Assembly: GCA_030770535.1 (NCBI GenBank) | Contig: JASVEC010000013.1 | Coordinates: forward strand, 372,001 to 436,000 | Direction: 5' to 3' | DNA from: Batkoa obscura | Taxonomy: Eukaryota | Length of the DNA stretch: 64,000 bases | Shown here: in pieces, positions 12,381 to 62,488 of the stretch | Numbering within the stretch: the stretch's first letter is position 1 | Layout of the letters: the number at the start of each line of letters is the position of its first letter | The notes under the pieces: model-generated | What the model was told of the DNA's origin: nothing | What the model saw: only the letters and a program-made list of their open reading frames with translations | The model's database searches: none | Program-made: the position numbers and the translations under genes

Positions 12381-13781
12381 CTAATTATAAATGTTTCTAT
12401 TTGCTTTAAGCTCTGTTTCTATAGGCAACATACTATCATCATCATCAATTTCATGGGAATGATTAAAAAGATCGGTATTATGATAATCGTTGTTAATGTC
12501 TAATGGATCAATTGGCTCAATAACAATAGGATCGATTATAATACTTGGAGGTTTTTTCTTTTTTAATTTATATTTATATAATATAAAGAATACAATTGCT
12601 GCCATTATTATAAAACCAATTATCCCGCCTATGATCCCACCTATTAATGCGCCATTATTTGACTCTTTGTCATTATCGTTAATTCCATCGTCAGTTTTAT
12701 CATCAATGTTATCTTCTTTAATTGATGAAGGTAAATAATCCACTTGTTCCCAATTACTCATATTATATAATTGGATATAGTTTGAACTTTGAACTTTACC
12801 TGGGTTTTTATCATTTATTAAATTTAAACCAAACGAATTAATTGCATAATTATTATAAGTAATAAAGCATCCAATTCGACCTATTTGAATACCTTCAAAT
12901 ATCTTCTCAAATGAAAATGGATTCATTTTTAATTTGTAAATATCTGCCATATGTGCCTTTTTTGGATCTAGCCAAAGATAATATACGTCTTGATTGAACT
13001 TGATTGTTTGAAAACCAACATATTTATCAAAAGCAACTTGATATGACTCTATTTGTTTTGTTGTCAGATCAAATGCATGCAATCTACTAAAACTAGTGTG
13101 ATAAGCAATTTCGTTGGTTGCTGGTATTTCAAAATAATACAATTTATTATTTAAAATGAATGATTGATAAATATACACATTGGCTAATGGTTTATATAAT
13201 ATCTTAACTTTCTTAGTTTGAATATCAAATTGTCTTAAATGAAGTGGAAAATATTTAGCTGAACCATATTGAAATAAAAACCCAGATATATAAAATTGAT
13301 TTTTATTGTTTTCATTCTGTAAAATATAAAGTGTTTGTGAACCTTTGGTTATCTCTTCATCTGTTAATTTGTACTCCTTGTATAAATCCTTGATAGTATA
13401 CTCATCATGCCATTTACTTTCCTTGACGTTAAAATAATTGAATGATAACCTTTTAGCACCACCGCTATCATATACACTTATTATATCATTACTATCATTT
13501 GTATAAAATAACTTCGGTGTATTCATTGTTTTTGGTACATTTATTATATTAGTTTCATTCCATTCCGCTTCATTATTAGTTAGTTTAAACCCTTTCTTTA
13601 AATTTAAGTGAAATGCCTTATCGTTGTCTTTTCCATTAATTTGTATATTTGGCATAAATATTTTACCACCTAAATAGTATAATTTATCTTCAACAACCAG
13701 ACAACCGCCTCTACTTAATCTAGGTGATATAGCACTGACTTTATAAAATGAGAAGCTAATGATTAATAATAATGGTATCAT
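12381..13781 (-). CDS. Single-pass cell-surface kelch/beta-propeller protein
   Basis: Signal peptide, GGCLVVEDKLYYLGG, acidic stalk, TM with GxxxG repeats, cytoplasmic FNHSHEI motif. Confidence 0.85.
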   Translation of the reverse strand: MIPLLLIISFSFYKVSAISPRLSRGGCLVVEDKLYYLGGKIFMPNIQINGKDNDKAFHLNLKKGFKLTNNEAEWNETNIINVPKTMNTPKLFYTNDSNDIISVYDSGGAKRLSFNYFNVKESKWHDEYTIKDLYKEYKLTDEEITKGSQTLYILQNENNKNQFYISGFLFQYGSAKYFPLHLRQFDIQTKKVKILYKPLANVYIYQSFILNNKLYYFEIPATNEIAYHTSFSRLHAFDLTTKQIESYQVAFDKYVGFQTIKFNQDVYYLWLDPKKAHMADIYKLKMNPFSFEKIFEGIQIGRIGCFITYNNYAINSFGLNLINDKNPGKVQSSNYIQLYNMSNWEQVDYLPSSIKEDNIDDKTDDGINDNDKESNNGALIGGIIGGIIGFIIMAAIVFFILYKYKLKKKKPPSIIIDPIVIEPIDPLDINNDYHNTDLFNHSHEIDDDDSMLPIETELKANRNIYN

Positions 13782-15069
13782 TTTTATAATAAAATTGTTG
13801 GATTTTATCCGTTATTTATACTTTATTTTTATGAATAAAACTCTATTAAAAAGATTGGAATAGCTTATTTCTGAATTCCCATATTAAGATGTCAAATTTA
13901 TTAAATTATGGTATATTTCTATTCATAGTCATTACAAAGGAGCTTACCATACTTTTATAAGTATCAATCCTTTCATCTGTGACTCTTAACCACTTTAATG
14001 TAATCTTTACAATTTACTTATAGAGATAGACTGATTGAAACTAACTGCTTTTCAAGTGTTATAAAAATACAAAATAAACAATGTAAATGAAGATATAATT
14101 AGCTTTCTATCGGGAGTTGTACACCAAAGACTCCAGGTTAGTATTTCAAAATATCTTTGAAAATAAATTTGAATTCTCACGGCTATAACTTTAACGTGAT
14201 TTATATGATAAATTTTTACCAAGAATGGGCAAGAAGTTTAAAACAACAATAGGTAGTTTAGTGCTAATACTTTTTTTAGTATGGCTAGCTAATATGTATA
14301 GTCTAGTATATAATGTTTTATATAGGCATTGACCATTTTCATTCAAACAAATTTTATTGTTTTTAACAGCTTATCGTAAAAAAATAATTAGAATGGTAAA
14401 AAAATCAATATATAATTTATAAAAACTTAAGCACTTTTACAAGTGATAATAAATTTTATAAAGCTTTTTTAAATTCATAATTTTTTATACTATATTCAAA
14501 TTATAAGTTATTAAATTTCTTGGAGAATATTTTGTAAACAATAACAAGTTATACTTTTAATTTCACTGTTGAGAAAATTATTGTTTAGCTTGAAGCAAAT
14601 AGCTTTTAAAAATTATAAGCTAGTCTTTAAATTTCTATCTGTTAAAACACCATTTTAAAGGTATACATAGCATATAATATTAATTGTAGAGCTTTATATA
14701 TTAGGATAGCTTAGCTTACCTTTATTTAACTATTATATATTTTAGTTTAATAATATCAATAATTTCGATAATTTTAGTTTGTGAATTTTACTTGAATTTA
14801 ATTGATTGGTGTAGAATTGAACAAATTTCGATCATTGTATAAAAAAATTCCTGGATAAAAATTAAAATTCAGGCAAGTCAAGGTTTATTGACATAATTTA
14901 TGTAAGCTTAGGTCAAATTTAAATGAATTGGCTTAGTGACAGTTTTTAGATTGATATCAAAATGGGTTCTATAAAGTGCTATTTAACTTATTGAGCAAAG
15001 TGAATAATATTTAACCTAGAAGTTGTAAACTATACCTAAAATAACAAATGATATAAGCTAGAATAAGTC

Positions 15070-17414: not shown

Positions 17415-18697
17415 TTTATTTCTAAGTAATATTTCTCTAGTAGTTGTCTAAGGTCTAGTTTAATGTTTAAGGCCAGTGACCACGAGTTTCAAAGCCATAG
17501 GATTTGTTAGCAGCTGGTTGATTATTTACTGGAACTGAAGTGATTGCAGACAAGATGTAAACAGTGTAAGCGATGAGTAAAGTAACTTGCATTTCGTTTA
17601 TAAGTAATTTGTATCTAAGGTAGTTTAAGTCAATTGAATGATAAAGCACCACTATTTATACTCCTTGATTATAATACATACTTGTATATAAATGTTGATT
17701 TGGTTTTTACAATGGATACCTCAAGTTAAGCTCAATGGTTAGCCTCATTTGTAACCTAATTTACATTGACAACACATGGTAGGTATAGCACATTGTCGTT
17801 GATTAAATAATATTTGAAATATATTAATAATATAGCACTTTTATTATCCATCCTTTATTTGAACTTTTTACGATTATATTCTCCATAGACCTAAATAGAA
17901 GAACTCTATTCTATAAATTATTATACACACCTTTTAAAAAATACTTAAAATTTTAGAGTCTGTTTACTTTTATAAACATTATATCATATACCTTTTAACT
18001 AATAAATTAAAATAACCATTACGTTGGGTACTTTTATTTATAACTTACCATTATATTGTTATGATAAAACAATCATACAATTAATTAAATAGCTTTTTGC
18101 CTTGTTGCTGTCGTTATGAAGTATACAACATTTAACTGTTTATTAGCTATTATTATTATGATATTATTTTTATTTTCGACTTTATTCAAATATTTATATA
18201 ATATAAATAAATGAACATTTTAGATAACATCACAATAAATGTGAAAAGATCTTTAACACATATTCATAAGTAGACTAAAAATGAGCAAATTAAATTAAAG
18301 TGCAGTCTAGTAATAAATAAATCAGGGATACTATTATATTGAATCCCTTTAAAATTTAACTCATTTTGGGATTTACCTTTTGTGAGTAAACTTGTCAAGT
18401 AAATTTACTAAATTAAATGTTATCCAAAAAAAACTTGAATTATATATTAGTTATTTTCATAAAAAGGTTCTCCAATATAAAAACTAGATAGCCTATACCT
18501 TTGAAATTAAAATTGTGGAGTATGAACTTAGTTAATGTAACAGCAGATGATACCCCAGTAGCATGGTAGCAATGGTAAATAACGTTTAGTAATACTTTTT
18601 AAGTAGTTTTTTTTATTAAATATATATTTATGTAATAATTAATTTAACAAGATATGAATTAACCAAGTATAGCATCATATTGAATGAAATAAAAATG
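17415..18697 (-). repeat. 1283-bp apparently identical inverted duplicate of 25575-26857
   Basis: End points give the same length and the inspected interior matches; contains the peptide gene plus ~1.1 kb upstream. Confidence 0.9.
17467..17592 (-). CDS. Secreted HWP-peptide precursor copy 1 (MQVTLLIAYTVYILSAITSVPVNNQPAANKSYGFETRGHWP)
   Basis: 41-aa ORF; TATAAATA ~70 bp upstream; AATAAA ~45 bp downstream; one of seven equal-length paralogs. Confidence 0.85.
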   Translation of the reverse strand: MQVTLLIAYTVYILSAITSVPVNNQPAANKSYGFETRGHWP

Positions 18698-18969
18698 GGT
18701 GCTATAGAGTATCTTTATTTTAGACCTTCGCTAATATGAAAATCCTATTATATTTAAACTCTCTATAAATAGTTTTAACTTATAATTAAAGATGGATTCG
18801 GCCTAGTCCTATTAAAGTCAAGTCTATGATTAATGCTCCCCAGTTGTTCGTCGATCTATTCCGTTAATACAATTAATGAACCACGAGTTGAAGTTCAAGT
18901 CTAATTATAACCCAAATGTAACAGAGTGGTAATTTTATTAAATTCGAGTTTGTATGGTAGAAGAGAGCA

Positions 18970-19780
18970 ATAAATCAAATAAATTGTGCCTTTTCAAATA
19001 TTTTGAACGTTTTTTTTCTTTTGGGTATCGGTTCCAAATATTTTGTTGAATAAGAAAAATCTTAAATTTCTAAACCAATGGACTTGAAGGGCTGAATCAT
19101 TTATGGCAGCCTGTTTAGGAGTTCAACGATATAGTCCAGCTCATTCTTATCCTTGGTTGATATAAGAAGGTAAAATAACAATCACTTCATTTTAGTTTAT
19201 GGGGAGCATCTCAATGAATGAGAAGAGGGTTGTAATTATAAGGGAGTGATGGGATTGTCGGTACATTAAGTGAGTTAAAGTGAAACTTTTATGTAAAGCC
19301 CATAGTCCTGTAGAATAGATAAAGGCTCTTACCAAAAAGCCAACTTAAAAGGTGAGAAGATTGAGAAAAAGCTAGATAAGTGGTGGGAGGAATGGGATAA
19401 GTCAAATGTAGATAGTAAGTGGGATAATAAATGTAACACAAGGATTCATTAGGGAAACTCATGAAAAGGTGAAATTTATTAGGAAATAATGGTAGCAGTT
19501 AATTGAGACGGACTCAAATTCGGCAATGATATTTAAAAGAATAAATTTTATGTATGCATCTCCCCAGGGTTTATAATAAACATGTATCTGAGGTTTTTAG
19601 CTGAGAAAGGTTAAAAAGGTAAATCGACAAAAAGAGCTTAGATAAAGATAAGTCTATATTTTTTATTAGAAATGTAAATACAATCTTATTGAAAGTATCG
19701 GATGGGGAGGATGATTTGAGCTTTTTAATCAAATTAAGGTGGTTTTTGAGGCTCTAATCGAATAGGCTTAACAATTTATA
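18970..19780 (-). mobile_element. Possible degenerate non-LTR retrotransposon (RT region) remnant
   Basis: Locally higher GC and broken RT-like peptide fragments (e.g. IIAEFESVS); no ORF; boundaries approximate. Confidence 0.3.
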
Positions 19781-19953
19781 TAAAGTACACTAAATTATTT
19801 TTATCATACGTTTTGAGATTTATACTAGAGTTCATCCTTATTTCAAACTAAGGTTTGAGTTGGATAGTTACAGAACTATTAATTATGAACTTTCAAACTA
19901 ATCGTGTTAAATTTTATAGTTAACTAAATAATAAACTAAAAAATTTGATATAT

Positions 19954-21356: not shown

Positions 21357-22290
21357 TAAACTTTTATCATTTATCCTGACAACTTCACTTTAAATTGACA
21401 ATCTTTGTGTAGCGAATTTCATAAACAAGTAAAATGTGATTTTTTTCGTTGAGATGGTAGGGGTTACTGATTGATTAGGTGGATTTTTTTCACTGTAAAT
21501 AAAATTCCTATCTTAAAGTTTTACTTTAATTAAAAAAGTAGTTATTTGAATTAAAAAACAACTATTAAAGATATTTAATAAGGTTAGGTTTGGGAGATTA
21601 TGGTTATGATTGGTGTTAGTGTTTATATTTAGTTAAATACAATCAGTGATTTCTTTGGTAAAAATTAATACTTTACTAAAAAAATTATTACCTACCTAGC
21701 CAGAGTACCCCCTACCTTTTTTCTGTGATTTGTGCCATGTCTTCTTTATACCAAAATCATGCATAAAGACAATATCTAAGACTATGGAGCCTGTTAGAGC
21801 TGCCGATGTCATTTCTATAACCCCAGACCACTTTTCTGATTATAATATCGATATCAATGTATTTTTACTTTAGCCACTGGCTCAGGTTCAAGTAAAGAAT
21901 TAAATGCTTATTTAGGTCCTGTTAGCAATAAATTTGCAAGATTTATTTTTACAGTATGTCAAGGAAGTAAATATTTAACAGCAGCTAGTTTATCTGATAG
22001 TAAAAAAAGCTACCATTAATAAAGGCCTTTTTAGTATTAGGACTGATAAATACCCAAATGTTCAATGATAATGTCAAGCTAAATTAACTTATGATAGCAA
22101 GCTTGTAACTTCTTCTGGTGCTGCTGTTGGGTTAGATAGAGTTTTCTGTTTAATTAATGAAGTTTATAATCTATATGCATCTACAAAAATTTCTAAAAGA
22201 TCAATAGAGTTGAGTACCAAGCCCAAATATATTGATAATTTTACTGAGATAGAAAAGAATTTCCATTTTTTAAGCTCTAGTGTTATTTGA
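21357..22290 (+). pseudogene. DJ-1/PfpI pseudogene (paralog of 43716-44435)
   Basis: Recognisable FIPKS..IKTI, ITPDHF, TVCQGS, YPNVQ*, TSSGA with stops and frameshifts; family-B MITE inserted; 5' boundary approximate. Confidence 0.8.
21456..21716. mobile_element. ~260-bp MITE (family B)
   Basis: TIR GGTAGGGG..TACT / AGTACCCCCTACC; internal AAGGTTAGGTT. Confidence 0.75.
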
Positions 22291-22542
22291 CAATAAGCAC
22301 TAAACTTTGTAATATTTTTTTATAAATTATTTATACTATATATCTATTAAAATTTCTTTAATAAAGCTTCGATATGGGGGTGTCCAAATTGGTTTCAGAA
22401 TTTAACTAGAAATTAATCCAAATTTTAAGTTTTTAAATTTGTAAGTCTTTAATGTATGATCAGCTAAATTTAAAAAGCCTAAAATTAAATATAAAAATTT
22501 AGCTTAAAAGACTTATTTATTTTATTTTTTTAATTATATGTT

Positions 22543-22899
22543 TGTGAAAGTTGGTACTCAGTGATTGAAGTTAAAAGCAGTCCTAGCTTAATTAACTGGC
22601 CGTAAGTCAAAAGGCCTTAGTTTATGTAACTAAGATAGACTTAAATTAATAGGAATAGTGCGCAATAAGCTACGAACTATATAAAATAAATAGAATAGAA
22701 GGTACTACTATAAAATCTACGTAAAATACTATAAGACTTAGTGGCTTTATTAAAAGTATAATATTAGGGAACAATTTAATTAAAAAGCCTCGAGCTATTA
22801 TGTTGAAGAATTCCTTTTATACTCCAACTAGTTTTGTAAACAAGTTAAGTGATTATTATACGATAAGCAATCATGGAGCTGATAAAACGATATTTCACA
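22543..22899 (+). mobile_element. Solo-LTR-like insert within the transposon 5' region
   Basis: TGTGAAA...TTTCACA termini; homologous to the free copies at 30553-31011 and 59629-60096; flanks ATGTT/GTGTT. Confidence 0.65.
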
Positions 22900-22992
22900 G
22901 TGTTTTGTATTTTTTTTATTAAATGTTTAATAGATATATAAGATGTAAATATATAATTATTTGACTTTGTTTTTTATTAAAATAAAAGCAAA

Positions 22993-25574: not shown

Positions 25575-26857
25575 CATTTTTATTTCATTCAATATGATGC
25601 TATACTTGGTTAATTCATATCTTGTTAAATTAATTATTACATAAATATATATTTAATAAAAAAAACTACTTAAAAAGTATTACTAAACGTTATTTACCAT
25701 TGCTACCATGCTACTGGGGTATCATCTGCTGTTACATTAACTAAGTTCATACTCCACAATTTTAATTTCAAAGGTATAGGCTATCTAGTTTTTATATTGG
25801 AGAACCTTTTTATGAAAATAACTAATATATAATTCAAGTTTTTTTTGGATAACATTTAATTTAGTAAATTTACTTGACAAGTTTACTCACAAAAGGTAAA
25901 TCCCAAAATGAGTTAAATTTTAAAGGGATTCAATATAATAGTATCCCTGATTTATTTATTACTAGACTGCACTTTAATTTAATTTGCTCATTTTTAGTCT
26001 ACTTATGAATATGTGTTAAAGATCTTTTCACATTTATTGTGATGTTATCTAAAATGTTCATTTATTTATATTATATAAATATTTGAATAAAGTCGAAAAT
26101 AAAAATAATATCATAATAATAATAGCTAATAAACAGTTAAATGTTGTATACTTCATAACGACAGCAACAAGGCAAAAAGCTATTTAATTAATTGTATGAT
26201 TGTTTTATCATAACAATATAATGGTAAGTTATAAATAAAAGTACCCAACGTAATGGTTATTTTAATTTATTAGTTAAAAGGTATATGATATAATGTTTAT
26301 AAAAGTAAACAGACTCTAAAATTTTAAGTATTTTTTAAAAGGTGTGTATAATAATTTATAGAATAGAGTTCTTCTATTTAGGTCTATGGAGAATATAATC
26401 GTAAAAAGTTCAAATAAAGGATGGATAATAAAAGTGCTATATTATTAATATATTTCAAATATTATTTAATCAACGACAATGTGCTATACCTACCATGTGT
26501 TGTCAATGTAAATTAGGTTACAAATGAGGCTAACCATTGAGCTTAACTTGAGGTATCCATTGTAAAAACCAAATCAACATTTATATACAAGTATGTATTA
26601 TAATCAAGGAGTATAAATAGTGGTGCTTTATCATTCAATTGACTTAAACTACCTTAGATACAAATTACTTATAAACGAAATGCAAGTTACTTTACTCATC
26701 GCTTACACTGTTTACATCTTGTCTGCAATCACTTCAGTTCCAGTAAATAATCAACCAGCTGCTAACAAATCCTATGGCTTTGAAACTCGTGGTCACTGGC
26801 CTTAAACATTAAACTAGACCTTAGACAACTACTAGAGAAATATTACTTAGAAATAAA
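25575..26857 (+). repeat. 1283-bp inverted duplicate of 17415-18697
   Basis: Apparent identity; weaker similarity continues ~190 bp further upstream. Confidence 0.9.
26680..26805 (+). CDS. Secreted HWP-peptide precursor copy 2 (identical to copy 1)
   Basis: ATG at 26680, TATAAATA at ~26612, AATAAA at ~26852. Confidence 0.85.
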   Translation: MQVTLLIAYTVYILSAITSVPVNNQPAANKSYGFETRGHWP

Positions 26858-28808: not shown

Positions 28809-28934
28809 ATGCAAGTTAGTTTACTCATCGCTTACACTGTTTACATCTTGTCTGCAATCACTTCAGTTCCAGTAAATAACCAACCAGCTGCTGAAAAATT
28901 CTTTAATAGTGGAACTCATCGTCACTGGCCTTAA
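28809..28934 (+). CDS. Secreted HWP-peptide precursor copy 3 (MQVSLLIAYTVYILSAITSVPVNNQPAAEKFFNSGTHRHWP)
   Basis: Manual translation; TATAAATAG ~70 bp upstream; AATAAA downstream; not in the ORF track. Confidence 0.85.
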   Translation: MQVSLLIAYTVYILSAITSVPVNNQPAAEKFFNSGTHRHWP

Positions 28935-31011: not shown

Positions 31012-31032
31012 TAGCATTTTTAATATCAATAT

Positions 31033-31130: not shown

Positions 31131-31134
31131 ATAT

Positions 31135-36952: not shown

Positions 36953-37078
36953 CTAAGGCCAATGAGGGTGAGTTCCAAGATGAGAGGCATTATGAGCAGC
37001 TGGTTGGTTATCAACTGGAACTGAAGTAATTGCGGACATGATGCAAATAGTACAAGTAATAATAAAAGTAAGTTGCAT
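36953..37078 (-). CDS. Secreted HWP-peptide precursor copy 4 (MQLTFIITCTICIMSAITSVPVDNQPAAHNASHLGTHPHWP)
   Basis: Manual translation of the minus strand; TATAAATA upstream (~37139-37146); AATAAA-like signal downstream; not in the ORF track. Confidence 0.85.
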   Translation of the reverse strand: MQLTFIITCTICIMSAITSVPVDNQPAAHNASHLGTHPHWP

Positions 37079-43715: not shown

Positions 43716-44435
43716 TTATGAAATAGTACTAAAGTTAGGAAATGGGAATTCTTTTTCTACATCAGTAAAGTTATCGATACTTGGATCCTGTATCCAGTTA
43801 TATTCATTACACTTAGAAATTTTTATAGCTGTATCTAAATCGTAGACCTTGCTAATTAAATAGAAAACGCCATCTAATCCAGCAGTAGCACCTGAAGAAG
43901 TTATAAACTTACCATCATGAACAAATCTAGCTTGACGTTGCCATTGAACATTTGGATATTTAGCAGCGCTAATACTAAAGAGTCCTTTAGTGATGGTAGC
44001 TTTTTTATTGTCTAATAAACCTGCTGCAGCTAAACATTCGCTTCCTTGACAAACACTGAAGAAGAACTTAGTTACCTTATCACTAACGCGATTTAAGTAA
44101 GCATTTAGTTCTTTACTTGGACCTGAACCAGCAGCTAAAGTAAGGATATCTATATCGATATCCTCATCAAAAGAATGATCTGGGGTTATAGTAATACCAT
44201 CATAAGTTTTAATAGGTTCTTTGGTTTTAGCAATTGTCTTAATACGTGATTTTGGTATAAAAGATAACATGGTACATGCAATAGAGAAATCAAATGTATC
44301 TAAACCATTATCAATAACTGCGATTACATTGAGCTCTTTATCAGGCATGGGAATTTTGAACCATGTACTGTTAAACTGGTCCTTTTGCTCTAGAGTAAAG
44401 TTGCTAAAATCTGAGATTTCTTTATTATGAGTCAT
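43716..44435 (-). CDS. DJ-1/PfpI (ThiJ; isonitrile-hydratase-like) family protein
   Basis: SVCQGS nucleophile elbow, LAAAGLLD.KKAT, FVHDGKFITSSGATAGLD. Confidence 0.88.
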   Translation of the reverse strand: MTHNKEISDFSNFTLEQKDQFNSTWFKIPMPDKELNVIAVIDNGLDTFDFSIACTMLSFIPKSRIKTIAKTKEPIKTYDGITITPDHSFDEDIDIDILTLAAGSGPSKELNAYLNRVSDKVTKFFFSVCQGSECLAAAGLLDNKKATITKGLFSISAAKYPNVQWQRQARFVHDGKFITSSGATAGLDGVFYLISKVYDLDTAIKISKCNEYNWIQDPSIDNFTDVEKEFPFPNFSTIS

Positions 44436-46861
44436 ATTTATTATTTTTGGTTTTTAGTTTTTAGTTTGGATATCTGTTTACTCTTTGCTTATATAGTTTT
44501 TGATGATCCAGTTATTGTCAAGCCATTTACAAAGTTGATAATAAATTTGAATTGAAGTGATGTGTATAATCTAATTTAAAAATAATCTATGAACAACCTA
44601 TAAAAGGAAAGTTTCTAGAAAATTTTAAATATTATATCTAAGATCATCAGACTTCAAGGAGAAAATGTATCGTTATACCTACTACATACTTTACTGACTA
44701 AAACTATTTTTAGGTCTGGTTTATTAGCTATCTTATGTATTATGTTGTTATATTTAATCTAATAAAAGTCAAAATTTAAAGGTGGTAAATTCAATAATAC
44801 TTTAGTTAAACATAAGGCTCAACTCGTTTTCCGATTTTAATTTGCATTTTTTTCCGAGGTTGTCATTACAAATTGAGTTTTTGTGTTTTTCTATTGGAAA
44901 AAATGATTTGGCAGGAAACAAAAAAAGTAATTCATGTTTCTAGCAGTCATTACAAAATGCTTGGTAGTGGTACAAAATAAAGAAAGATTCTCATCAAAAA
45001 ATAGTCAACTTTATACAAAAAAACATATGGTTGAAGCACTCCGCTATTTAAAAATTAAATATCTATTTTTAGATTTGATTCATAAGATTTCTTTAAAACT
45101 CATGGTTTTTTTTAAAAGGTTCAGAGCAAACTAGATTTTAAATGAATCTATGATCTTAGATATAACACAACCACTTTGTTTTTTATATACTAAAAAATAT
45201 ATATTTACTGTTGCTTAAACACTATCAAATTTTATAAAAAACAATATATTACAAAGTAAAAATAAATTACTGATCGATGATTTATGTGCATTACCATTTT
45301 ATTTTTTAAATTAGTTTAAATTTGTTATTCATATTTCTAACACTAATAAAGCACTTAGGGTTTATACCCTTTTCAGGATTTTAAAAAATGTTATTTATTG
45401 AAAATGGCTCATTTTCATTGATTATAATTTAAAGTATCCAAATTTAAATAATCAATCAATAAAAATATATATTTCTTTTAAGAAAACAGAGTTTATAAGA
45501 TAAAAATAATATTTTTGAATCTTTGTACATCAATAAAAAAGTTTTTAGATGAATTAAGATATCATGAACATTAGGATCAATTAAAGGCTTAAAAGTGAAT
45601 CAGTTTCTATAAACATATTAATGATATGAACAATGGTTGGTATCAATAAGTATAAAATTAATCTAGAAATCGTGTAATAGTCAACTTTAAGGTCTTTTTT
45701 ATTTAGCTCCACTTTTTCTTTACTAAGCGATGAATTAATATTGTATATGTAATTAGTATAACTGTTATGGGAGCAAATACAAATTTAAAAGTATATGTCA
45801 TTAACTAACATGTTCTACCGCTTTTAATTTTTTAATATCGATTATAAAATGTTAACTTTTCCAAAGTAAATAAATAACTGATTATCACTTAAATCATAAA
45901 TACAAATAAAATTTTATACTACACGATTTTACTCCTGAAAATGTAAGTCATCTATTTTTCTATAATGATAACGTGCTTGTAAGTAATAATATATCATATC
46001 GCCTTTTTGTGGGTGGATTATTAAATTTAGTAAATTTTTTGACAAATTTGCATAGAGATGTTAAATTCTAAACTAAGTTAAATTTTAAAGGGAATCAATT
46101 TTACTAAAAACCAGATTTGCTCATTAAAGTACACATTAGTTATATTTGGTATATTCAATTTTAGTACTTTAAAATTGGAGGTTAAGAGTTTTTCACACTA
46201 ACATTTAAATACTAGTAAAGTAATTTATACAATTAAATCAAAAGTTGAATAAAGTTATAAAACATAAGATAACTTGAAAATAATAATAACTAATACAAAA
46301 CTAATTTCATATAGCCTATAAACCAGCAACCAATTATCGATAGTTGAATGATTTATTGTTTGGTATGACCATCTATGATACTTTTCCATAAGAAATGTAA
46401 AGTTGAATAGTAAGTAAAAAGCACTCTGAGAATTTTATAATTTTCTCTTTATTAGTTAAGAAATCCGCGATAAAATATTTAAAAATCAAGTAGACTCTAG
46501 ATTTTAAAAATACTTATTGATAGGGTGTACAATAATACAATCAAACCAATTTTTTTATTTAGAAAATTATTAAAAATCATCGTAAAAAGTTTAAATTAAG
46601 AATAAGTAACAAAAGTATTGTAATATAAAAATATTTTAATCTCTACTCAGCTAACGACAATATATTATAACACACCATGTGTTGTCTATACATTTAAGTT
46701 ATAAACAAACCGATCCATTAATCTTAAAATAATACATCCGTGTTAGCAACTCATTTAACGTTTGTAGTATGATTAGATACTATTAACAAGAAGTATAAAT
46801 AGTAAGGATTTTACTATACTACAAAATTATATTACATTAGATACAAATTACTATATACAAA

Positions 46862-46987
46862 ATGCAACTTACTTTCCTTATCGCTTACACTGTTTACATT
46901 ATGTCTGTAATCACTTCAGTTCCTACTAACAACCAACCAGCTGCTGATAAAGCCAAAGTAGTTGAAATTCGTCGTCACTGGCCTTAA
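46862..46987 (+). CDS. Secreted HWP-peptide precursor copy 5 (MQLTFLIAYTVYIMSVITSVPTNNQPAADKAKVVEIRRHWP)
   Basis: Manual translation; TATAAATAG ~46794; AATAAA ~47035; not in the ORF track. Confidence 0.85.
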   Translation: MQLTFLIAYTVYIMSVITSVPTNNQPAADKAKVVEIRRHWP

Positions 46988-48845: not shown

Positions 48846-48971
48846 ATGCAACTTACTTTCCTTATCGCTTACACTGTTTACATTATGTCTGTAATCACTT
48901 CAGTTCCTACTAACAACCAACCAGCTGCTGATAAAGCCAAAGTAGTTGAAATTCGTCGTCACTGGCCTTGA
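48846..48971 (+). CDS. Secreted HWP-peptide precursor copy 6 (same protein as copy 5)
   Basis: Identical coding sequence with TGA stop; tandem unit ~1.98 kb. Confidence 0.85.
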   Translation: MQLTFLIAYTVYIMSVITSVPTNNQPAADKAKVVEIRRHWP

Positions 48972-50737: not shown

Positions 50738-50863
50738 ATGCAACTTACTTTCCTTATCGCTTACACTGTTTACATTATGTCTGTAATCACTTCAGTTCCT
50801 ACTAACAACCAACCAGCTGCTGATAAAGCCAAAGTAGTTGAAATTCGTCGTCACTGGCCTTGA
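50738..50863 (+). CDS. Secreted HWP-peptide precursor copy 7 (same protein as copy 5)
   Basis: Identical to copy 6; tandem unit ~1.89 kb. Confidence 0.85.
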   Translation: MQLTFLIAYTVYIMSVITSVPTNNQPAADKAKVVEIRRHWP

Positions 50864-51912: not shown

Positions 51913-52715
51913 AATCACGTTTGTTGTAATTTGTTATTTTAAATTGATGTTTACTCTTATTTTATATAGTGTTTAATGAGACAATTGCATTAATTAAAGT
52001 TGGTTATCAAGCTTTTTTAGATTACTCCTCCCTATCGAAGATTTGGTTTGTTTAAAAAAATCAAAGGTGAGAAGAAAGGAAATAACCAAATAAAAAAAGA
52101 ATTGAGCAGGAGACCTATACCTGTTAGGGATTAGTAAAATACCTGTTTTTCTCCAGTCAAACGATTGAAAAGAAGAGAATTGATTATTGGAGGAATTGAT
52201 TTGGTTACGAATGAAAAAAGTATTTCATATAGTAGTCCTTTCCATCCAAAAACTAGAACTTATTTAGATGATGAAGAGATAAATTATTAAATTAGCTTAT
52301 TAAAAGTCCTTTAAATAATTTACGCAACATATGAAACTATAAAAAGTTTATCAAATTTGTCTAATTTAATAAATAAGATATGAATAAAGTCAAGAGATAA
52401 TGACCATGATAGAAGAGAATTAAATTCAATGTTAAGAGCAAAATCACAGGCATAGTAGAAACTTTAGACGAAAGAACAAGGTATGAAGTTATGTTTTATA
52501 TCCTAATCAAAAGTAAGTAGAACAAAATATTAAACTACTATTAATTTTAAAAAAAATCTCGAAATAAGACAAGTCTTAAATGGTTTATTATTTCGGTTTT
52601 AAAGCTAAATGCAAAGAATGGATAAAGGAGATAGTAAGACATAGACAGAGAACGAAAGAGATCTAATATTATTTATTTTAATTTAGTAGATGTTTATTGT
52701 CTTTGATCACAATCT

Positions 52716-53600
52716 TCATATCGGTTGTTTTTTAGGATGTATCTTTTCAGGTGATTGAATCAAACTTTTATTAAAATCGTGAGAATATCGGAATGTAACT
52801 GACTTTTCATTATTATTATATGGATTGAGTATATCAGGGGATTCAATTACAACTGGATCCGTTATTAATTCAAGTGGTTGATTTCTTTTTATTCTTTGTT
52901 TATAATAGATTAATAAGATTAAGAGTATTAGAAGAATCACATCTACAGAGCCACCTACACTAAGTCCTACTAGTTTACTAGTATCAATATTATCCTTAAG
53001 GTTGTTTTCTGTTGCTGATGTATAGTCTTTGATTTGTTATTTTTTGTTATTTAGAGCTGGTAAAGTATTCACTGTATTCCAAGTATTAATATCAACTAAT
53101 TGAATTCTACCACTGTCAATAAATCCAAGTGATTGTAATACGCCATACAACCAAAATTTAAAATGGAAGTAAAGTTTGCTTCTTTGAGATTATAGGAACT
53201 GATGTTTAATTTATAAATGCCTAAATTTTCAGCAACCGTAGATTGAAATAAATAAATAAATAGAATTATCCGCTTTCATTCTTTTAGCTGTTTCATTCTT
53301 TCTTAAATAATTATTAAATTTATGACTAGTTAATATGTTATTTGATGAATTATATTTATATAGTTGATCAGAATTTGTTCGTAATTAATAATCAGACTCA
53401 CTCTTTGATTCAAAACAATAAATCTTATCATTTAACGTGAACATTTCACCTCCGATAACTACTCCAATATTAAATAGTATATTTAATTCATTTGTTTCAG
53501 TATTATATAACATTAATGGCAACGTTTCAAAGTCCTCTCCCCTTATTATACATACCACTAACATAAAATTGGTTTAAATTGAAATCATCTTGTATATTGA
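52716..53600 (-). pseudogene. 5'-truncated, degenerate kelch-TM paralog
   Basis: TM and tail ELITDPVVIE...FRYSHDF match the family; upstream part frameshifted and ends at a MITE. Confidence 0.7.
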
Positions 53601-53618
53601 AAGTATAATGATATATAT

Positions 53619-53991: not shown

Positions 53992-54666
53992 TATGTTTAA
54001 ATTTTAAATCAATTTATCAATATTAAATTAATATATTTATACTATCAACTTCAACTAAGGTTTTATTATAAATATATAATATCATTAAAAGTATAAATAG
54101 TAAATATTTTATTATCTCATAAAGTTATATTATATCATATATATTACTTATAAATCCAATATAACTTACTTTTTTTACTGCTTGTATTGTTTATATTATA
54201 TCTATAATCATTCAGTTTTTATTAATAGCTAACTAGCTATTAATATAGCCAATATAGTTGAAATTTGTTATCACTGGCTTCAAACATTAAACTAAACCTT
54301 GTATTATCATTAATTAAATATTTTTAATTAAATAAATAAAATCTTTTATAAAACTAAATTAATTTAAAAATCTTTCTATAAAGGTATTTGTGTATTATTG
54401 ATAAATATAACATGATATTTATAAAAATTTTTAAAAAAAGAATTCTATATTTAAATACTGAAATATATTTTTTTATTTCTATTTGTTTATTTTTTATATA
54501 ACATAAAATTGATCAAATCTTTCAGTAAAATAGGATGTTAAAAATAAATATTTTAATTAGCTATAAATTTTTAATATTTAAAATAATTTATTAACTTATT
54601 AAAATAAAATAAAATAAAATCAATAATAAATTTTTGAAAAATAACTAATAATAAGAATCAAAAAGT

Positions 54667-56073
54667 TTATTTTAAAATTTGATTAATAAATTGTAATATT
54701 TTTTGTTTAGCATCTACTACTTCTAATTGATCATTGCTATTCGGTTTATAAATATCCATTGAATGCGAACCATTAATAATGTTAATAATTTTCATTGAAT
54801 CATACGTTGAATTGATAATAGATAATGAAGACCAAGGATCTAATTGACCATTAATTAGTAGTAAATTATTAACTTTGATATTTTTACTATTATAATTTAA
54901 ATTTGTCTTTGTTACATTTAATATTAAATTATTATTAATCCCGAATGTATTTTTACAATAGAATTCCATATTAAAATTAATAGTTAATAATTTCGATCTT
55001 ACTGGTAATTGGTTTAATGGGGCTATTTGCCAATATCCGAATTCAGTACAACATTGATACATCCATTGTCTAAAAGCATCTCCACGATTTGGTTTTTCAA
55101 TTGAATTATATTTTAAATAATTAAAATCCTCCCCACATTTGTTATCATTTAAACGGAATTTAAAATCTCTAATAAAATCTTCAAACTTTTCTTTTGATGT
55201 CCCATTTAACATTAATGAATTACAGTAATTTTTTAAATTGTCTTTTTCATTATATTGAACTAAAGCGGATAAATATAAAAAAGCTAAACCAAATTCATCA
55301 TCTTCAATAGTTTCACATGTGAATTTCTTTTTCAATTCATACTTCTCTTCTATACTTCCATTCAATAATATATTGTTAATAAATTGAAAGTTTTCTAAAT
55401 GATAATTCAAACATGATTGTCCCCCATGAATTAATAATGCTTTTTGAACCATTAAATCATACTCAAAGAAATCTATTTTAGCTTCTAATGCAGCCGATGA
55501 AGCAATGGCCCCATGAAATGTATCCGGATATTTGTATTTTGCCCAAGCAGCTAAATTCCCTGCATAACTAGCACCATATAAAATCCACTGAGTATTTTTA
55601 TTTTTCTCATCTATATTCTTAACAAAATTAACAATATCTAAAATAGCTAATTCAGACGTTAAATATTTTAAACTATTTAAAGATAAATCTTGTTTTGGAT
55701 AAGATTCACCATAAAATCGATGTTCTAATGCATAGATAATACCTCCTTGTTGTTCTGCTGCCGTTGTTAAGATCGAATTAGTTGCCCAATAATCCCCATA
55801 TAATTCTCCTTCCGCACCAATAAATAAGAAAGCTGGTCCTCCAGGACGATAATATTGATCATTCACAAAATAACGTTGGGACCAATAACCAGATTCTAAT
55901 TCAGAATTATTATGGGATAAAGATTGATTAAACCATAATTGTTGTACTGAATTAAGTAATCGACTATTATGGATTAATTGACTAGGTGATGGATCTCTGT
56001 ATTTAAAATATAAGAAATTGCTATGAATGAAGAGTGGAAATAAAAAGAAAAGGAAATTATAAATTGAATTCAT
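54667..56073 (-). CDS. Secreted/vacuolar peptidase family S28 (prolylcarboxypeptidase/DPP-II-like)
   Basis: Signal peptide; QRYFVN, ALEHRFYGES, GASYAG (Ser), DPW (Asp), HSMD (His), QCCTEFGYWQ. Confidence 0.93.
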   Translation of the reverse strand: MNSIYNFLFFLFPLFIHSNFLYFKYRDPSPSQLIHNSRLLNSVQQLWFNQSLSHNNSELESGYWSQRYFVNDQYYRPGGPAFLFIGAEGELYGDYWATNSILTTAAEQQGGIIYALEHRFYGESYPKQDLSLNSLKYLTSELAILDIVNFVKNIDEKNKNTQWILYGASYAGNLAAWAKYKYPDTFHGAIASSAALEAKIDFFEYDLMVQKALLIHGGQSCLNYHLENFQFINNILLNGSIEEKYELKKKFTCETIEDDEFGLAFLYLSALVQYNEKDNLKNYCNSLMLNGTSKEKFEDFIRDFKFRLNDNKCGEDFNYLKYNSIEKPNRGDAFRQWMYQCCTEFGYWQIAPLNQLPVRSKLLTINFNMEFYCKNTFGINNNLILNVTKTNLNYNSKNIKVNNLLLINGQLDPWSSLSIINSTYDSMKIINIINGSHSMDIYKPNSNDQLEVVDAKQKILQFINQILK

Positions 56074-56711: not shown

Positions 56712-56715
56712 ATAT

Positions 56716-59584
56716 GGGGGTGTCCGAATTGGTTTCAGAATTTAACTAGAAATTAATCCAAATTTTAAGTTTTTAAATTTGTAAGTCTTTAATGTATGAT
56801 TAGCTAAATTTAAAAAGCTTAAAATTAAATATAAAAATTTAACTTAAAGACTTATTTTATTTATTTTATTTTATTTTATTTTTTTGATTATATGTTTGTG
56901 AAAGTTAGTACTCAGCAATTGGAGTTGAAAGCAGCTCTAGCTTAGTTAACTGGCCGTAAGTCAAAAGGCCTTAGTTTATGTAGCTAAGATAGACTTAAAT
57001 CAATAGGAGTAATACGCAATAAGCTACGAGCTATGTAAAATAAATAGAATACAGGATATTACTATAAAATCTACATAAGATATTATCAGAAAGATTTAGT
57101 GGCTTTATTAAAAGTAAAATATTAGGGAACAATTTAATTAAAAAGCCTTGAGCTATTATGTTGAAGAATCTATTTTATACTCAACTAGTTTTGTAAACAA
57201 GTTAAGTGATTATTATGCGATAATCAATCACAGAGATGATGAAACGATATTTCACAGTGTTTTGTATTTTTTATTAAATATTCAATAGCTATATAATATA
57301 TAATTATATAGTTATTTGACTTTGTTTTTTGTTAAAATAAAAACAAAATGCAAGCTTTTATAACTAAACTTCGAAATGGAATTTCTAAAAACTTTAATAC
57401 GGTAGGGAGAAGCACATTATATAAACATTGTAATTCATTTACATCAATTTTAGCAACTATTCACAATTGCCCAAAGTTTATGGAATTTTATAATAAAACA
57501 AAAAAAAGAAAAGAAATATTATTAAATTTTACTATTAATAATAACAAACTTAATCAAGCAATGTATAAAATTAGTGTTTTAAGGGAAACAGGAAATAAAA
57601 ACCAACAAGTAGCATTATTATCGACTATAGCTTCAGTATATTCTTTTGATGAATGTAAAAGTTTTGGATTTAATATAAGTAAAAATCAATATGATTATTC
57701 AAAAATAATTAATAATAATAAAATACCAACATTACGACCTACTATCAAAAATACAAAAAAAATTAAAGATGAGCAAATCGAGATTATTATACAATATTTA
57801 CTTGATAATTCAACTATTTCATCAAGATTTAGTAAGAAAAATAATGATAAATATTCGTCAGAGAATATATATATATTAAATAAAAGTAGAAGGATGATAT
57901 ACAGTAAGTATTTTAATGATTTAAAAGATAAAGCAGTAGCTAGGTCAACATTTTTCAAATATATACCAAATAATTTTAAAAATCCAGCAAGAAAAACAGA
58001 TTTATGTAATATATGTGCCCAGTATACAGTTAGAAAAAAGTTATTTGAAAATAAAATAAATACAGCGACAGAAAATAAAGCAGAGATACAGGAATCTTTT
58101 AATAAAGAAAAAAGGTTATATAAATTACATGAATTTTGTGTTGATACTCAAAAAAACATACTTAATGAAACTATTGAAAAATTAAATAATAGAAGTTGTA
58201 TAATAATTTTAGACTTTAAACAAAATATGGAAATAGGAACGAGACCAGATCCAATAAACTTAGATCATTATAATAAACAAGCTATATCAGTATTAGGGTT
58301 TGGCGTTTTGTATTTAAAAAACGATAAAACAATAGGCAAAGTTTATTTTGATTATTTATCTGAAATATTAAATCATGATTCAGCATATGCAGGAGATTGT
58401 TTGATTGATTTAATATCTAAAGAGCCTTTGTTTAAAAAGTTTACAAAAATTAATATATGGGCAGATACAGGATATCATTTTAAATCTCAAGAGTTTTTAC
58501 ATTATGTATTTGAAGAAAGTCATAAAATAAATAGTAGTTTAAATATTGATCTTAATTTTTTTGCTGAGCATCATGGAAAAAGTATAGTTGACGGGCATTT
58601 TGGAAATCTTTCACAGTGGAAAAATAGTCTTGAAGCATTAGGTAAAATAGAAGATATTGATCAATTAATTTCAAAATTTGAGATTTTTGTTTGTGAAAAT
58701 AATAGATTTAATAACTCAACTGTCAATAATGGGAAAACAAATATAATTTTTAAAAAGTATGAAAGAAACAAAGATACAAAAAAAATAATAAAAATAAAAG
58801 GTATTAAAAAGTATTTACATTTTATTAAACGTGGTAAAAAACTATACTGTTATCCAGTATCTGATAGATCAAAAAAAAGCGATATAATTTCAATTAAAGT
58901 TATAGAGTCTATAGAGGATAGAAAAATTAAAAGGTCAACCCCAGCTTATCTTACAAAAATAACTGAGAATTTAAAAGTTTCAATATTTAGTAAGCAAGTA
59001 AGTAGCTTATTAGATGATAGAAATCAATTATTAAATGTTGATATTACTTAAATTATTGATAGCTAAGTTAATAAATAGTCAAAGAGCAAGTAGTTGTAAT
59101 AATAAGTAAAAACTATTAATACACTGCTTGTATTACATAGGGATGGTTAATTATAGTTTTGGGGCTAACCACTCCCTCCCATGCAGCTATTTATTAACTT
59201 AGCGATATATTAATAATGTAATTATAACATTAAAATAATTTATTCATTTGATAGCAAATCTGTAGTGTTGAATATAAAACAATTAATAATAAATATTTCT
59301 TAATAAAGCTATATAAAAGCATATATTTATTTACATATTACAACTTTGACTAATATCACTATACAGGCTATATTAGTAAAATCTTTACTAATCCAGGAAT
59401 TTATATTAAATTTAATAAAAATTCCGCTAATTGACAATATAAATTATAACAAAATAATTTAAAACTGTGTCGGGTACTTTTGGCTTTTAATAAAGAATTT
59501 ATTTTTATAGAATTTTAAGCAAAGTTTTTAAAATATAAATATTTAAAAATTGGATAAAAAAATGAAACCAATTCGGACACCCCC
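56716..59584 (+). mobile_element. Full-length Sola-like DNA transposon, copy 3 (2869 bp)
   Basis: Perfect 22-bp TIRs, ATAT both sides; internal LTR-like insert 56897-57256. Confidence 0.9.
57348..59051 (+). CDS. Transposase (Sola-like)
   Basis: 567 aa intact; DFKQN / WADTG / HHGKSIVDGHFG. Confidence 0.88.
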   Translation: MQAFITKLRNGISKNFNTVGRSTLYKHCNSFTSILATIHNCPKFMEFYNKTKKRKEILLNFTINNNKLNQAMYKISVLRETGNKNQQVALLSTIASVYSFDECKSFGFNISKNQYDYSKIINNNKIPTLRPTIKNTKKIKDEQIEIIIQYLLDNSTISSRFSKKNNDKYSSENIYILNKSRRMIYSKYFNDLKDKAVARSTFFKYIPNNFKNPARKTDLCNICAQYTVRKKLFENKINTATENKAEIQESFNKEKRLYKLHEFCVDTQKNILNETIEKLNNRSCIIILDFKQNMEIGTRPDPINLDHYNKQAISVLGFGVLYLKNDKTIGKVYFDYLSEILNHDSAYAGDCLIDLISKEPLFKKFTKINIWADTGYHFKSQEFLHYVFEESHKINSSLNIDLNFFAEHHGKSIVDGHFGNLSQWKNSLEALGKIEDIDQLISKFEIFVCENNRFNNSTVNNGKTNIIFKKYERNKDTKKIIKIKGIKKYLHFIKRGKKLYCYPVSDRSKKSDIISIKVIESIEDRKIKRSTPAYLTKITENLKVSIFSKQVSSLLDDRNQLLNVDIT

Positions 59585-59628
59585 ATATATTATTTCTTTT
59601 ACTTTATCTTACCAAATACTAATTAAGG

Positions 59629-60096: not shown

Positions 60097-61579
60097 AAGG
60101 TGTCATTTATTATATGTTTATTGATAGAAATAGTTTATCAGTAAAAATGTGATATCATCCTATTTAAATATTTATATAATAATATGATATAAAACTAACA
60201 ATAAAAAAATAAAATTAATTAATATTTACTTTATTAAAAAAAATTTAATTAAATAACTTAAGTACTTTTCTTAATTAATTAGCTTTTTTTTAAAAAATTA
60301 GAAACTATTATAAGTTCAGTATAAATTTTTGTAATTTTTTATTAAAAAGATTAAAAAAATAGCTAAAAAACAATATAAAAGTATAACTTAATATTTTTTA
60401 AAGTACAAAAACAAATTAAAACATGCAAAAGTAAGTTAAATATGAAATTCAGAGTATAATGTAGTTTTTTAATTGCTTATGATAAAAATTAAATTCAAGC
60501 TATTCTTTTATTATTGACTTTGTAGTGATAAGTGGTAGCTAAGCTACTATTACTTTTAAAGCATTTCAACTTAGATATTAAAAATCTTTTTGGTTTTAAT
60601 AAAATAATAAAATGTCATCTTGAAGTTAGTTTATTAAACTTTTTAAACCCATATTTTTTAAAAATAGTTAGTTTGAAATAAATAAAGAGACTGGTTGACG
60701 TGGAGTAGAATGAACTATTGTACTCATCAGATCTATTCCAATAATCAATTTATCTTGAGTCAAAGCAATAGCTTTAAAATTAAAGAACCAGTAACTGACG
60801 ATACATTAATAATATTCTATAAAAACTATTATTTTTTTAGATAATTAGAAAACTTCAACTACATTAATAATGTTCAATATTTTCAATATCTTACTACAAC
60901 TCCACGTTATAACATCAACATTCTAAGCAAAGTAAATATACATTGAATTATTTTAAAGTAACGTGGTATTGAAAAATTCAACTTAAAAACCAATGAAATA
61001 AAAGGTTTAAAATTAAGGTTTTTATTCTATAAAATAGTATTAAGTATTAATAATAAACTACTTCAACTTGGACCTCTCTTTTTATAAATAAAAGTTGATT
61101 TATTAGATGGCATTCTTTGTAGCAGTAAAAGAAGTTAACTCAATTGTATATTACTTATCTTGTTAAGTTTATGGGCTTAAGATACGTTGAGTTGGTATTA
61201 TTTTAATAATAAAATATAAGTTACAGATAACAATAGTGGATAAATTAAGTTCTTAGTTTAAAGCCAAGTAATGTTATAATATTATTAAAAACTAATAAGT
61301 ACTAACCTTGATATTATAAGCTTAACATTCAATTTAACAACTTTAATAACATTAAAAAATTAAAAATATTTTATATAATAATAATGGGGTGTATCAATAT
61401 TTAATAATACAAATGTTATTTCTAAATACAATTTAAATGTTCGCAAAACAACGATAGTAATAAATTCAATTAATTAGTTAAATTCAATTACTAAATTAAG
61501 CTTTTATAGAATTTCAATTCATTAATTGAACTATACTATAAATAAAAAACAAAAGAAAATTAAGAATCCATTTTTACTA

Positions 61580-62488
61580 ATGTTTGAATCACCATTTAAA
61601 ACGTATATGTTAGAATATTATGCTAACTCATTATCTATAATATTAACATTATACTCATTATTTTTATTTATTACTGTGTCTTTTATTAACAATAGAATCA
61701 ACAATAATATACCTTATTTAATTTCCATATTTATATTAATAAGTGATTTGTTATATTCAATATGTCAAATAGGATTTGCATTTGTTACATTACCACCAAT
61801 AGCATGTAAAATCTATCAATGGGTGGAGATGTTATCTATATCCTTATCAATGTTTTATGCAGCTACTATATCAATTATATTTTTATTAGCAATCAAATAT
61901 GAACTAAGATTAACTTTAACAATGAGGATATTAACGTATAGTATAGCACCAATATTATCTATAATATTAAGTACATTACCAATAGCTTTTGATAAGATAA
62001 GGACAACGGATGGATGTGGCTTTAATATGAAAGGAGATGGGGTTATTTGGATTTTAGCTACCAAATTTGGAGCTACTTTTTTTACCGTGTTTATATGTCC
62101 CATTATTTATATTGTAATTATCTATTATCTAGCATTAAAGAAACGTATGTTAAGTCGATCAGGAATCAGTAGTGGCAGTAATGGCTCTTCGATACGATAT
62201 AGAGCCTTTATACGATTATTCATTTATCCATTAATACCTTTAATTAGTTATGTATTTTATATGGTTGTATTTCTGTTTGCTATCTTTAAAATTAAAATGA
62301 ACAAGACGACCGTTTCTACTATTGGTGATATTGGCGCCTTTTTTTCTGGTTTACAAGGTTTTTTTAATTCATTATTATTTTTAACTAATAGTATCTTCTT
62401 AAAAGAAATTAATCAAGTGGGAGAATGGTATAGTGATTCTTCCTTCTTTGATAAAACTTATTTTATTAAATTGAAACAATCTAATTGA
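61580..62488 (+). CDS. cAMP-receptor-like/Git3-type 7TM GPCR, paralog 3
   Basis: First ATG 61580 (ORF-track start is TTG); ILISDLLY, RLFIYPLIP, SGLQGFFNSLLFLTNSIFLKEIN. Confidence 0.8.
   Translation: MFESPFKTYMLEYYANSLSIILTLYSLFLFITVSFINNRINNNIPYLISIFILISDLLYSICQIGFAFVTLPPIACKIYQWVEMLSISLSMFYAATISIIFLLAIKYELRLTLTMRILTYSIAPILSIILSTLPIAFDKIRTTDGCGFNMKGDGVIWILATKFGATFFTVFICPIIYIVIIYYLALKKRMLSRSGISSGSNGSSIRYRAFIRLFIYPLIPLISYVFYMVVFLFAIFKIKMNKTTVSTIGDIGAFFSGLQGFFNSLLFLTNSIFLKEINQVGEWYSDSSFFDKTYFIKLKQSN

Follow-up and report, generated by a model that had tools for sequence, protein, structure and literature searches.

Peptide and receptor genes of the locus

Here we describe a 64,000-nucleotide (nt) stretch of the Batkoa obscura genome (GenBank assembly GCA_030770535.1, contig JASVEC010000013.1, positions 372,001 to 436,000; hereafter the window, meaning the whole stretch analysed), in which a family of very short genes for predicted secreted peptides is interleaved with a small clade of orphan G protein-coupled receptors (GPCRs). 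The peptide family is real and has remained unannotated, as genes this short often do. The window has a GC content of ~25%, and each gene considered below consists of one open reading frame (ORF). Its inventory comprises seven intact peptide genes of four types and one decayed copy, together with three intact seven-transmembrane (7TM) genes, G1 to G3, and one truncated copy (Table 1).

The seven peptide ORFs are identical in length, at exactly 41 codons, and each precursor carries a single peptide. Its layout is constant: a hydrophobic N-terminus of ~19 residues (signal peptide and secretion being predicted from hydropathy only), a short pro-region whose last residues are invariant NQPAA, 10 variable residues and a C-terminal HWP, which is found in 7/7 peptides, with a CAAX end in 0/7. 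The diverged cores noted in a preliminary description of this DNA are indeed variable, but they amount to four types, not seven: the genes at 46862, 48846 and 50738 encode one peptide (type D), those at 17592 and 26680 another (type A), and types B (28809) and C (37078) have one gene each. The 22-mers expected after signal cleavage lack cysteines and have a net charge of -1 to +2. A dibasic pair is present in type D only, inside the core, and no dibasic site for core release is conserved across the types. Invariant QP-AA precedes the core and may correspond to Ste13-type X-Pro/X-Ala dipeptides, but no site exposing QP-AA was identified.

In all seven genes a TATAAA stands at -68 to -70, and 46-47 nt past the stop codon there is an AATAAA-like signal. 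Outside the core, omega (the ratio of nonsynonymous to synonymous rates) is 0.29-0.40, and HWP is without amino-acid change; the frame, length and ends of the peptide are thus under purifying selection, while the core evolves at or above the neutral rate at constant length. Because of the equal lengths, the common signals and the purifying selection outside the core, the ORFs are not chance occurrences. Codons ending in C make up 23 of the 34 C/T-ending codons counted in types A, B and D and 4 of 15 in type C, versus 9-38% in nine long genes, a preference that may be a sign of high expression. A conserved island, TAAATT...AGTTAAA.TTT.AA.GGA, lies ~780 nt 5' of the peptide start codons in six of six aligned upstream blocks (e.g. 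46050-46100) and could be a regulatory element.

Copies of type D are 99-100% identical across the coding region and 190 nt upstream and 56-62% identical beyond, and between types A and B, 82 of 84 nt agree across the signal and pro part, with flanks that are 62% alike; on these patterns of identity, gene conversion among the peptide genes is evident. Searches for homologues returned nothing from the protein collection (entries of 22-72 amino acids only), no exact match for any of four peptides (0/4), no homologue in the Atlas and a single Pfam match for the four peptides, at E=0.18. A DNA pattern of the peptide genes matched seven metagenome stretches, 0/7 of which encode such a peptide. Within the window the same pattern has seven matches compared with none in 100 shuffles, a circular result in that it was derived from these same genes.

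The receptors

As the preliminary description had recognised, the three receptors are strongly diverged, being mutually 33-39% identical with synonymous sites at or near saturation. A structure was modelled for G1 only, G2 and G3 being assigned by homology. The AlphaFold2 model shows a bundle of seven long helices, with two short paired strands in the second extracellular loop (ECL2) and a helix 8 (predicted local distance difference test score 69.8, predicted template-modelling score 0.72). With this model, Foldseek gave 448 of 500 counted matches at E<=0.001, the rows listed all being GPCRs, and VIA-align gave a top Z of 22.8 (root-mean-square deviation 4.1, 277 residues aligned), tied with other class A receptors. 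Both programs place GPCRs or GPCR-fold domains in their top rows. The rows listed include no Ste2 or Ste3 structure, an absence that does not exclude them. The top VIA-align rows are mostly peptide receptors, but aminergic receptors and LYCHOS score equally, so a ligand class cannot be read from the fold. Cysteines in the third transmembrane helix (TM3) and ECL2 align in all three intact receptors (C79/C150, C77/C147 and C76/C146). Together these results predict that G1 to G3 fold as GPCRs.

Pfam assigned no GPCR family to G1 to G3, and among six aligned clade members there was one 7tm_1 match (E=0.0003, below the curated cut-off). Neither the three window receptors nor the six aligned members matched STE3 (PF02076), STE2 (PF02116) or, at E<=10, Dicty_CAR (PF05462), a threshold to be read in the knowledge that HMMER filters drop most matches above ~0.1. 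The preliminary description had called these receptors cAMP-receptor-like. What supports the term is the Atlas, where clusters of Dicty_CAR, 7tm_2 and GPR157 and an unnamed cluster of 97 members, some from Zoopagomycota, are among the feature neighbours at 0.96, a measure of likeness without alignment or E-value; the label therefore describes resemblance and not tested membership. A search of 5.8 billion proteins, which depends on shared 5-residue words, returned three clade matches, all from Neoconidiobolus thromboides, and receptor scans gave matches in 0/556 metagenome and 0/188 viral stretches. The clade thus appears to be small rather than a large scattered family. In 8/8 receptor pairs the outer halves have changed more quickly than the inner ones, significantly so in seven. 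A further 7TM gene at 566-1468(+) was considered as a clade member and rejected (hhalign probability 0.1%); it is an unrelated rhodopsin-like gene (7tm_1 E=0.00018, below cut-off).

Protein relatives of the receptors and of the kelch genes described below were found only in N. thromboides FSU 785, whose proteins we label P0001 to P0004; exact look-up of 16 window proteins in the protein collection found 0/16. On this evidence the window belongs to a close relative of that strain, within Entomophthoromycotina (Zoopagomycota), early-branching fungi some of which infect insects. P0001 is 91% identical to G3 (outer half 83% versus inner half 96%, p=0.0004), P0002 80% to G1, P0003 (KAI9298432.1) 28-30% to G1 and P0004 94% to the kelch gene at 42140. 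P0003, on a 221-kb contig, is a fourth clade member without counterpart in the window. P0002 is N-truncated and more diverged than its G3 equivalent: over the same stretch, G1/P0002 are 80% and G3/P0001 92% identical (170/213 versus 196/212, p=0.0002). No orthologue of G2 is among the FSU 785 matches, though the kelch gene adjoining G2 has one at 94% identity. These differences fit receptor turnover between strains and, equally, a fragmented assembly, the relatives lying on short contigs of 6.6, 14 and 22 kb. Reading synteny from accession numbers was dropped, as P0001, P0002 and P0004 are on different contigs. Fusion of two alleles by the assembler was ruled out, as G1, G3 and the kelch gene adjoining G2 all have relatives in FSU 785; paralogous neighbours that are merely 67-74% alike also speak against it.

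Architecture and duplication history

Three of the four receptor copies stand head-to-head with a peptide gene, all within 2.7 kb. The preliminary description had reported a divergent peptide and receptor ~2.6 kb apart in two places, and start-to-start distances bear this out at 2611 nt for 17592(-)/20203(+) and 2645 nt for 37078(-)/39723(+); the gap between the first type D gene (D1) and the receptor remnant is 1073 nt. The other parts it had listed are likewise confirmed, namely the single-membrane-segment kelch gene with its kelch propeller fold, the DJ-1 remnant, the third 7TM gene, the kelch pseudogene at 34479-35859(-), the kelch gene at 42140(+), the intact DJ-1 gene and the five plus-strand peptide genes. 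Its repeated kelch-peptide-GPCR-DJ-1 module is not: G1 is followed by no kelch gene, a COPI-associated gene separates the first kelch gene from the first peptide gene, and the second DJ-1 gene, taken to be in direct order, is on the minus strand as part of an inverted copy with an overlooked receptor remnant. A direct four-gene repeat was thus rejected, strands and order differing between the copies.

The remnant matches G1 from 20607 on through the 3' flank, and the intact DJ-1 gene downstream of it on the same strand mirrors the DJ-1 remnant downstream of G1. It follows from this mirrored order that one peptide/G1/DJ-1 unit was, as far as sequence can tell, duplicated in inverted orientation, with a later deletion taking the 5' half of the remnant receptor. 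Peptide units share an upstream block of up to ~1.35 kb at 63-74% identity (scores 888-1284 versus 374-565 for unrelated blocks). The ~2.6-kb spacing is homologous in its peptide-side half, this 1.3-kb upstream block, and not in the other; because the receptor-proximal half aligns no better than shuffled sequence and holds retroelement remnants, the equal spacing is partly coincidence. Remnants of non-long-terminal-repeat retroelements are present on the minus strand in both peptide-receptor gaps and derive from different parts of the element (zf-RVT at 39287-39520(-); reverse transcriptase-like fragments at ~19000-19800(-), by eye). The comparisons indicate that birth and death of a head-to-head peptide/receptor unit enlarged the locus, and that peptide genes were copied and homogenised afterwards. 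Co-phylogeny of peptides and receptors was dropped as evidence, there being three pairs, one decayed receptor and signs of gene conversion.

Table 1. Positions of the peptide, receptor and neighbouring genes in the window (aa, amino acids).
Feature	Position	Strand	Remarks
Peptide type A, 41 aa, core NKSYGFETRGHWP	17467..17592	-	head-to-head with G1
Upstream block, ~1.35 kb, common to peptide units	17593..18950	-	TATAAA at -68, conserved island near -780
7TM receptor G1, 297 aa	20203..21096	+	Cys79 and Cys150, predicted ECL2 hairpin
DJ-1/PfpI pseudogene	21731..22287	+	3' of G1
Peptide type A, second copy	26680..26805	+	within 96%-identical inverted 1.5-kb duplicate (25363-26869)
Peptide type B, core EKFFNSGTHRHWP	28809..28934	+	signal and pro part 82/84 nt same as A
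Peptide type C, core HNASHLGTHPHWP	36953..37078	-	head-to-head with G2
7TM receptor G2, 303 aa	39723..40634	+	Cys77 and Cys147
DJ-1/PfpI gene, intact	43716..44435	-	3' of receptor remnant (inverted copy of G1 unit)
G1-like receptor remnant, truncated and decayed, with 3' flank	~45210..45882	-	abuts shortened upstream block of D1
Peptide type D, copy 1 (D1), core DKAKVVEIRRHWP	46862..46987	+	head-to-head with receptor remnant
Peptide type D, copy 2	48846..48971	+	
Peptide type D, copy 3	50738..50863	+	
Decayed peptide gene	54159..54287	+	start lost, stops, frameshift
7TM receptor G3, 302 aa	61580..62488	+	Cys76 and Cys146; no head-to-head peptide gene
Kelch-propeller protein with a single transmembrane segment	12381..13781	-	neighbour
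Kelch paralogues	7481-8860; 42140-43267	-; +	
Kelch pseudogenes	near 9983-11443; 34479-35859; 52743-53595	- (all)	
S28 proline-specific peptidase	54667..56073	-	neighbour; pseudogene copy 63018-63974 (+)

Neighbouring genes and mobile elements

The kelch, DJ-1 and S28 genes are neighbours that multiplied among DNA transposons, and there is no evidence that they take part in the system. Six kelch-propeller genes and pseudogenes are present (7481-13781, 34479-35859, 42140-43267 and 52743-53595), most with a C-terminal membrane segment; the protein collection holds one kelch relative, P0004, and none close to the two long intact kelch genes. A third DJ-1 copy at 51037-51979(-) is decayed, and the ~250 bp that interrupt it are found again immediately 5' of the DJ-1 remnant at 21731. 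The S28 peptidase resembles DPP2, an Aspergillus prolyl endoprotease and Pro-X carboxypeptidase, and the gene and its pseudogene copy flank G3. Because the peptides are proline-rich at both ends, this peptidase is a candidate processing or degrading enzyme.

A DNA transposon of 2.87 kb is found at 22372-25243(+), 31131-34007(-) and 56712-59589(+), with a fragment at 29612-30553. Its terminal inverted repeats begin GGGGGTGT, and its ORF of 567-568 amino acids has no Pfam or NCBIfam match; by its HHGKS..DGHFG motif it may resemble Sola-type transposases. Two copies are 99.7% identical, so the element moved recently. Repeats of ~110-130 bp resembling miniature inverted-repeat transposable elements (MITEs) lie at 11166, 15997, 19950, 27280, 29347, 31031, 36687, 53600, 53888 and 62691; their ends resemble those of the transposon, and some interrupt kelch pseudogenes. 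Two inverted tRNA-Arg(ACG) genes, 1886-1960(+) and 6242-6316(-), enclose a UDP-glycosyltransferase gene.

A candidate ligand-receptor locus

The preliminary description proposed a linked ligand-receptor system, and given the predicted GPCR fold, the real peptide genes and the head-to-head arrangement of three of four receptor copies this is the best reading, with the pairing itself inferred. Also in its favour are the small size of the receptor clade, the quicker change in the outer receptor halves, the absence of Ste2 and Ste3 from a survey's counts for N. thromboides FSU 785 (PMC12842992) and the precedent of a proven neighbouring ligand/receptor pair in Ustilago. Pairing of ligand and receptor in some form is likely, and such a locus would probably be of independent origin. 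For its more specific form, a locus for self or kin signalling from fungus to fungus, we see the chances as roughly balanced. The 41-residue precursor would enter the secretory pathway and shed ~19 residues to leave the 22-mer, which may be cut after invariant NQPAA to a 13-mer. Invariant HWP would serve as the common activating end, the variable residues before it would set the choice of receptor, and the linked receptor would signal through a G protein. Cells of one clone, or close kin, would most likely be the ones to exchange the signal, in density sensing or in the pairing of hyphal segments before zygospores form. Such signalling is likelier than a two-allele mating switch because one genome holds all the peptide types and receptors.

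Several observations weigh against this interpretation. No peptide gene is head-to-head with G3, whose nearest upstream one is the decayed copy, on the same strand at a distance of 7421 nt; type B is not paired with any receptor. The pairs of type A with G1 and of type D with the remnant go back to one duplication, so that head-to-head pairs represent at most two independent events. Because peptide units remain 63-74% alike over 1.3 kb while receptors are saturated, the units were copied later than the receptors split, and in a transposon-rich region they could have landed beside receptors through local duplication. The 1.3 kb nearest to each of G1, G2 and G3 do not align above shuffled controls and hold no shared block, and the six peptide upstream regions have no 8-mer with at least two G/C in common. 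In type D, RR before HWP is a possible Kex2 site, at which the proposed ligand would be cleaved. No peptide homologue was found outside the window in the protein, Atlas, Pfam and metagenome searches. Quicker change in outer halves is usual for GPCRs. Diversification of the core, finally, is suggested: in a region picked after the alignment had been viewed, core omega is 2.9-3.9 (p 0.0007-0.014 across six tree and frequency settings with shared branch lengths) and 2.68 without type A (p 0.038), but it drops to 1.67 without type B (p 0.27) and to 1.5-1.8 for the core alone (p 0.41-0.57). Positive selection is thus not robust, because these controls weaken both omega and p.

Other explanations would account for part of the same evidence. 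It is rather unlikely, though worth serious thought, that the peptides are directed outward, to act on insect hosts as effectors or on competitors as antimicrobials, while the receptors sense other cues and both families accumulated through local duplication in a single fast-evolving region rich in transposons. Kelch, DJ-1 and S28 genes have multiplied here as well, among four transposon copies and ~10 MITE-like repeats, the peptide units arose after the receptors had split, and the homogenised state of the three D copies points to selection for dose; N. thromboides is also described as a pathogen of broad host range (PMC9409958). Against this stand a rare receptor clade found head-to-head with a peptide gene in three of four copies and the low charge and lack of cysteines of the 22-mers. 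Typical antimicrobial peptides differ from 22-mers of this kind. A sensor gated by the host, in the style of Ustilago Pit2/Gpe1, in which insect or substrate proteases trim the 22-mer and the product reports host entry through the linked receptor, is very improbable in our view. The neighbouring gene pair and the TM3-ECL2 cysteines are as in Gpe1, and the fungus itself has no conserved dibasic site for releasing the core; a 41-residue precursor is, however, too short to hold a Pit2-like folded scaffold, and the linked S28 peptidase and QP-AA dipeptides would offer a possible route of self-processing.

Mating was among the roles proposed in the preliminary description, and as a determinant of mating type it is weakened by the description of sex in this group as exclusively homothallic (PMC3734969); a mating-type role is accordingly less likely, yet a survey counts no Ste2 or Ste3 in N. 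thromboides (PMC12842992). We think it unlikely that the locus is an independently evolved supergene for partner recognition, in mating or between self and non-self, combining unmodified HWP peptides with a non-Ste2/Ste3 GPCR clade and strain-specific receptor sets. Less probable again is a multiallelic mating-type or allorecognition locus in which strains differ in their sets and peptides activate non-self receptors only, as at basidiomycete pheromone/receptor (P/R) loci. Several diverged receptors beside several peptide types recall mushroom B loci, and strain differences are hinted at by the missing G2 orthologue and the unequal conservation of G1 and G3 in FSU 785; however, G2 may be missing through a gap in assembly or annotation, P0002 may be a decaying copy, and one haplotype only is in view. 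Were partner recognition true, Zoopagomycota would gain both their first peptide pheromone system and their first compatibility locus. Activation of a linked receptor by any of the peptides would in turn deorphanise a GPCR clade, place a peptide signal outside Dikarya and add a further independent origin of linked ligand and receptor genes in fungi.

Comparison with known systems

In the literature consulted, in which subscription papers were thinly covered, neither this peptide family nor this receptor clade is described, nor is any pheromone or mating locus of Entomophthoromycotina; the word "pheromone" is absent from the excerpt of PMC11105155, and pheromones of most early-diverging fungi are described as largely unknown (PMC6339444). 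Neoconidiobolus zygospores form from two conjugating segments (PMC7136305). The survey in PMC12842992 (Table S3) counts zero Ste2, Ste3, Git3 and class V receptors and 26 rhodopsin-class receptors in FSU 785, and the same four zeros in C. coronatus, Z. radicans and B. meristosporus (4/4 rows including FSU 785). Class II receptors are elsewhere said to occur in most early-diverging fungi (PMC13308352), contrary to these zeros, and the survey's filters may miss divergent receptors.

Pheromones of basidiomycete P/R loci end in CAAX. At those loci STE3 receptors are linked to pheromone genes, and the window resembles them in having receptor genes beside small peptide genes and several diverged receptors and peptide types clustered together (PMC13308352). 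It is unlike them in that its receptors have no STE3 Pfam match, its peptides no CAAX and its precursors a predicted signal peptide, and in that its host group is described as homothallic (PMC3734969); linkage is physically present in the window, while the identity of ligand and receptor is inferred. In yeast, by comparison, the genes for alpha-factor and its receptor are unlinked. Like the ascomycete alpha-factor/Ste2 system (PMC6339444), the locus would yield a short unmodified peptide from a precursor with a predicted signal peptide, and its 13-residue core may be preceded by X-Pro/X-Ala dipeptides; it differs in its one peptide per precursor, its linked genes and the lack of a conserved Kex2 site and of a STE2 Pfam match. 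Autocrine density sensing through Ste2 and Ste3 is documented in Fusarium oxysporum (PMC6339444; PMC13308352 section 7). Class V, cAMP-receptor-like (Dicty_CAR) proteins are near the window receptors as Atlas feature neighbours at 0.96; the window receptors, unlike these, have no PF05462 match, and the class V ligands named in PMC13308352 section 10 are small molecules or unknown, not peptides.

The closest functional parallel is in Ustilago maydis, where Gpe1(Pit1) and Pit2 are a proven neighbouring pair of GPCR and precursor, with a TM3-ECL2 disulfide and a role outside mating (bioRxiv 10.1101/2025.09.26.678928). Here too a non-Ste2/Ste3 GPCR with TM3-ECL2 cysteines stands beside the gene of a predicted secreted precursor; smut proteins were absent from the receptor matches in the search of 5.8 billion proteins, a method that needs shared 5-residue words. 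Pit2, however, is a folded protein of 120 residues that is opened by host proteases, with one pair per locus, whereas the window encodes precursors of 41 residues, of which ~22 would remain once the predicted signal peptide is removed; the peptide forms their C-terminal end, and the genes are arrayed in several copies. Pit2/Gpe1 is the best functional precedent despite its different precursor design, and the locus appears to be a member of neither the P/R nor the Pit2/Gpe1 type.

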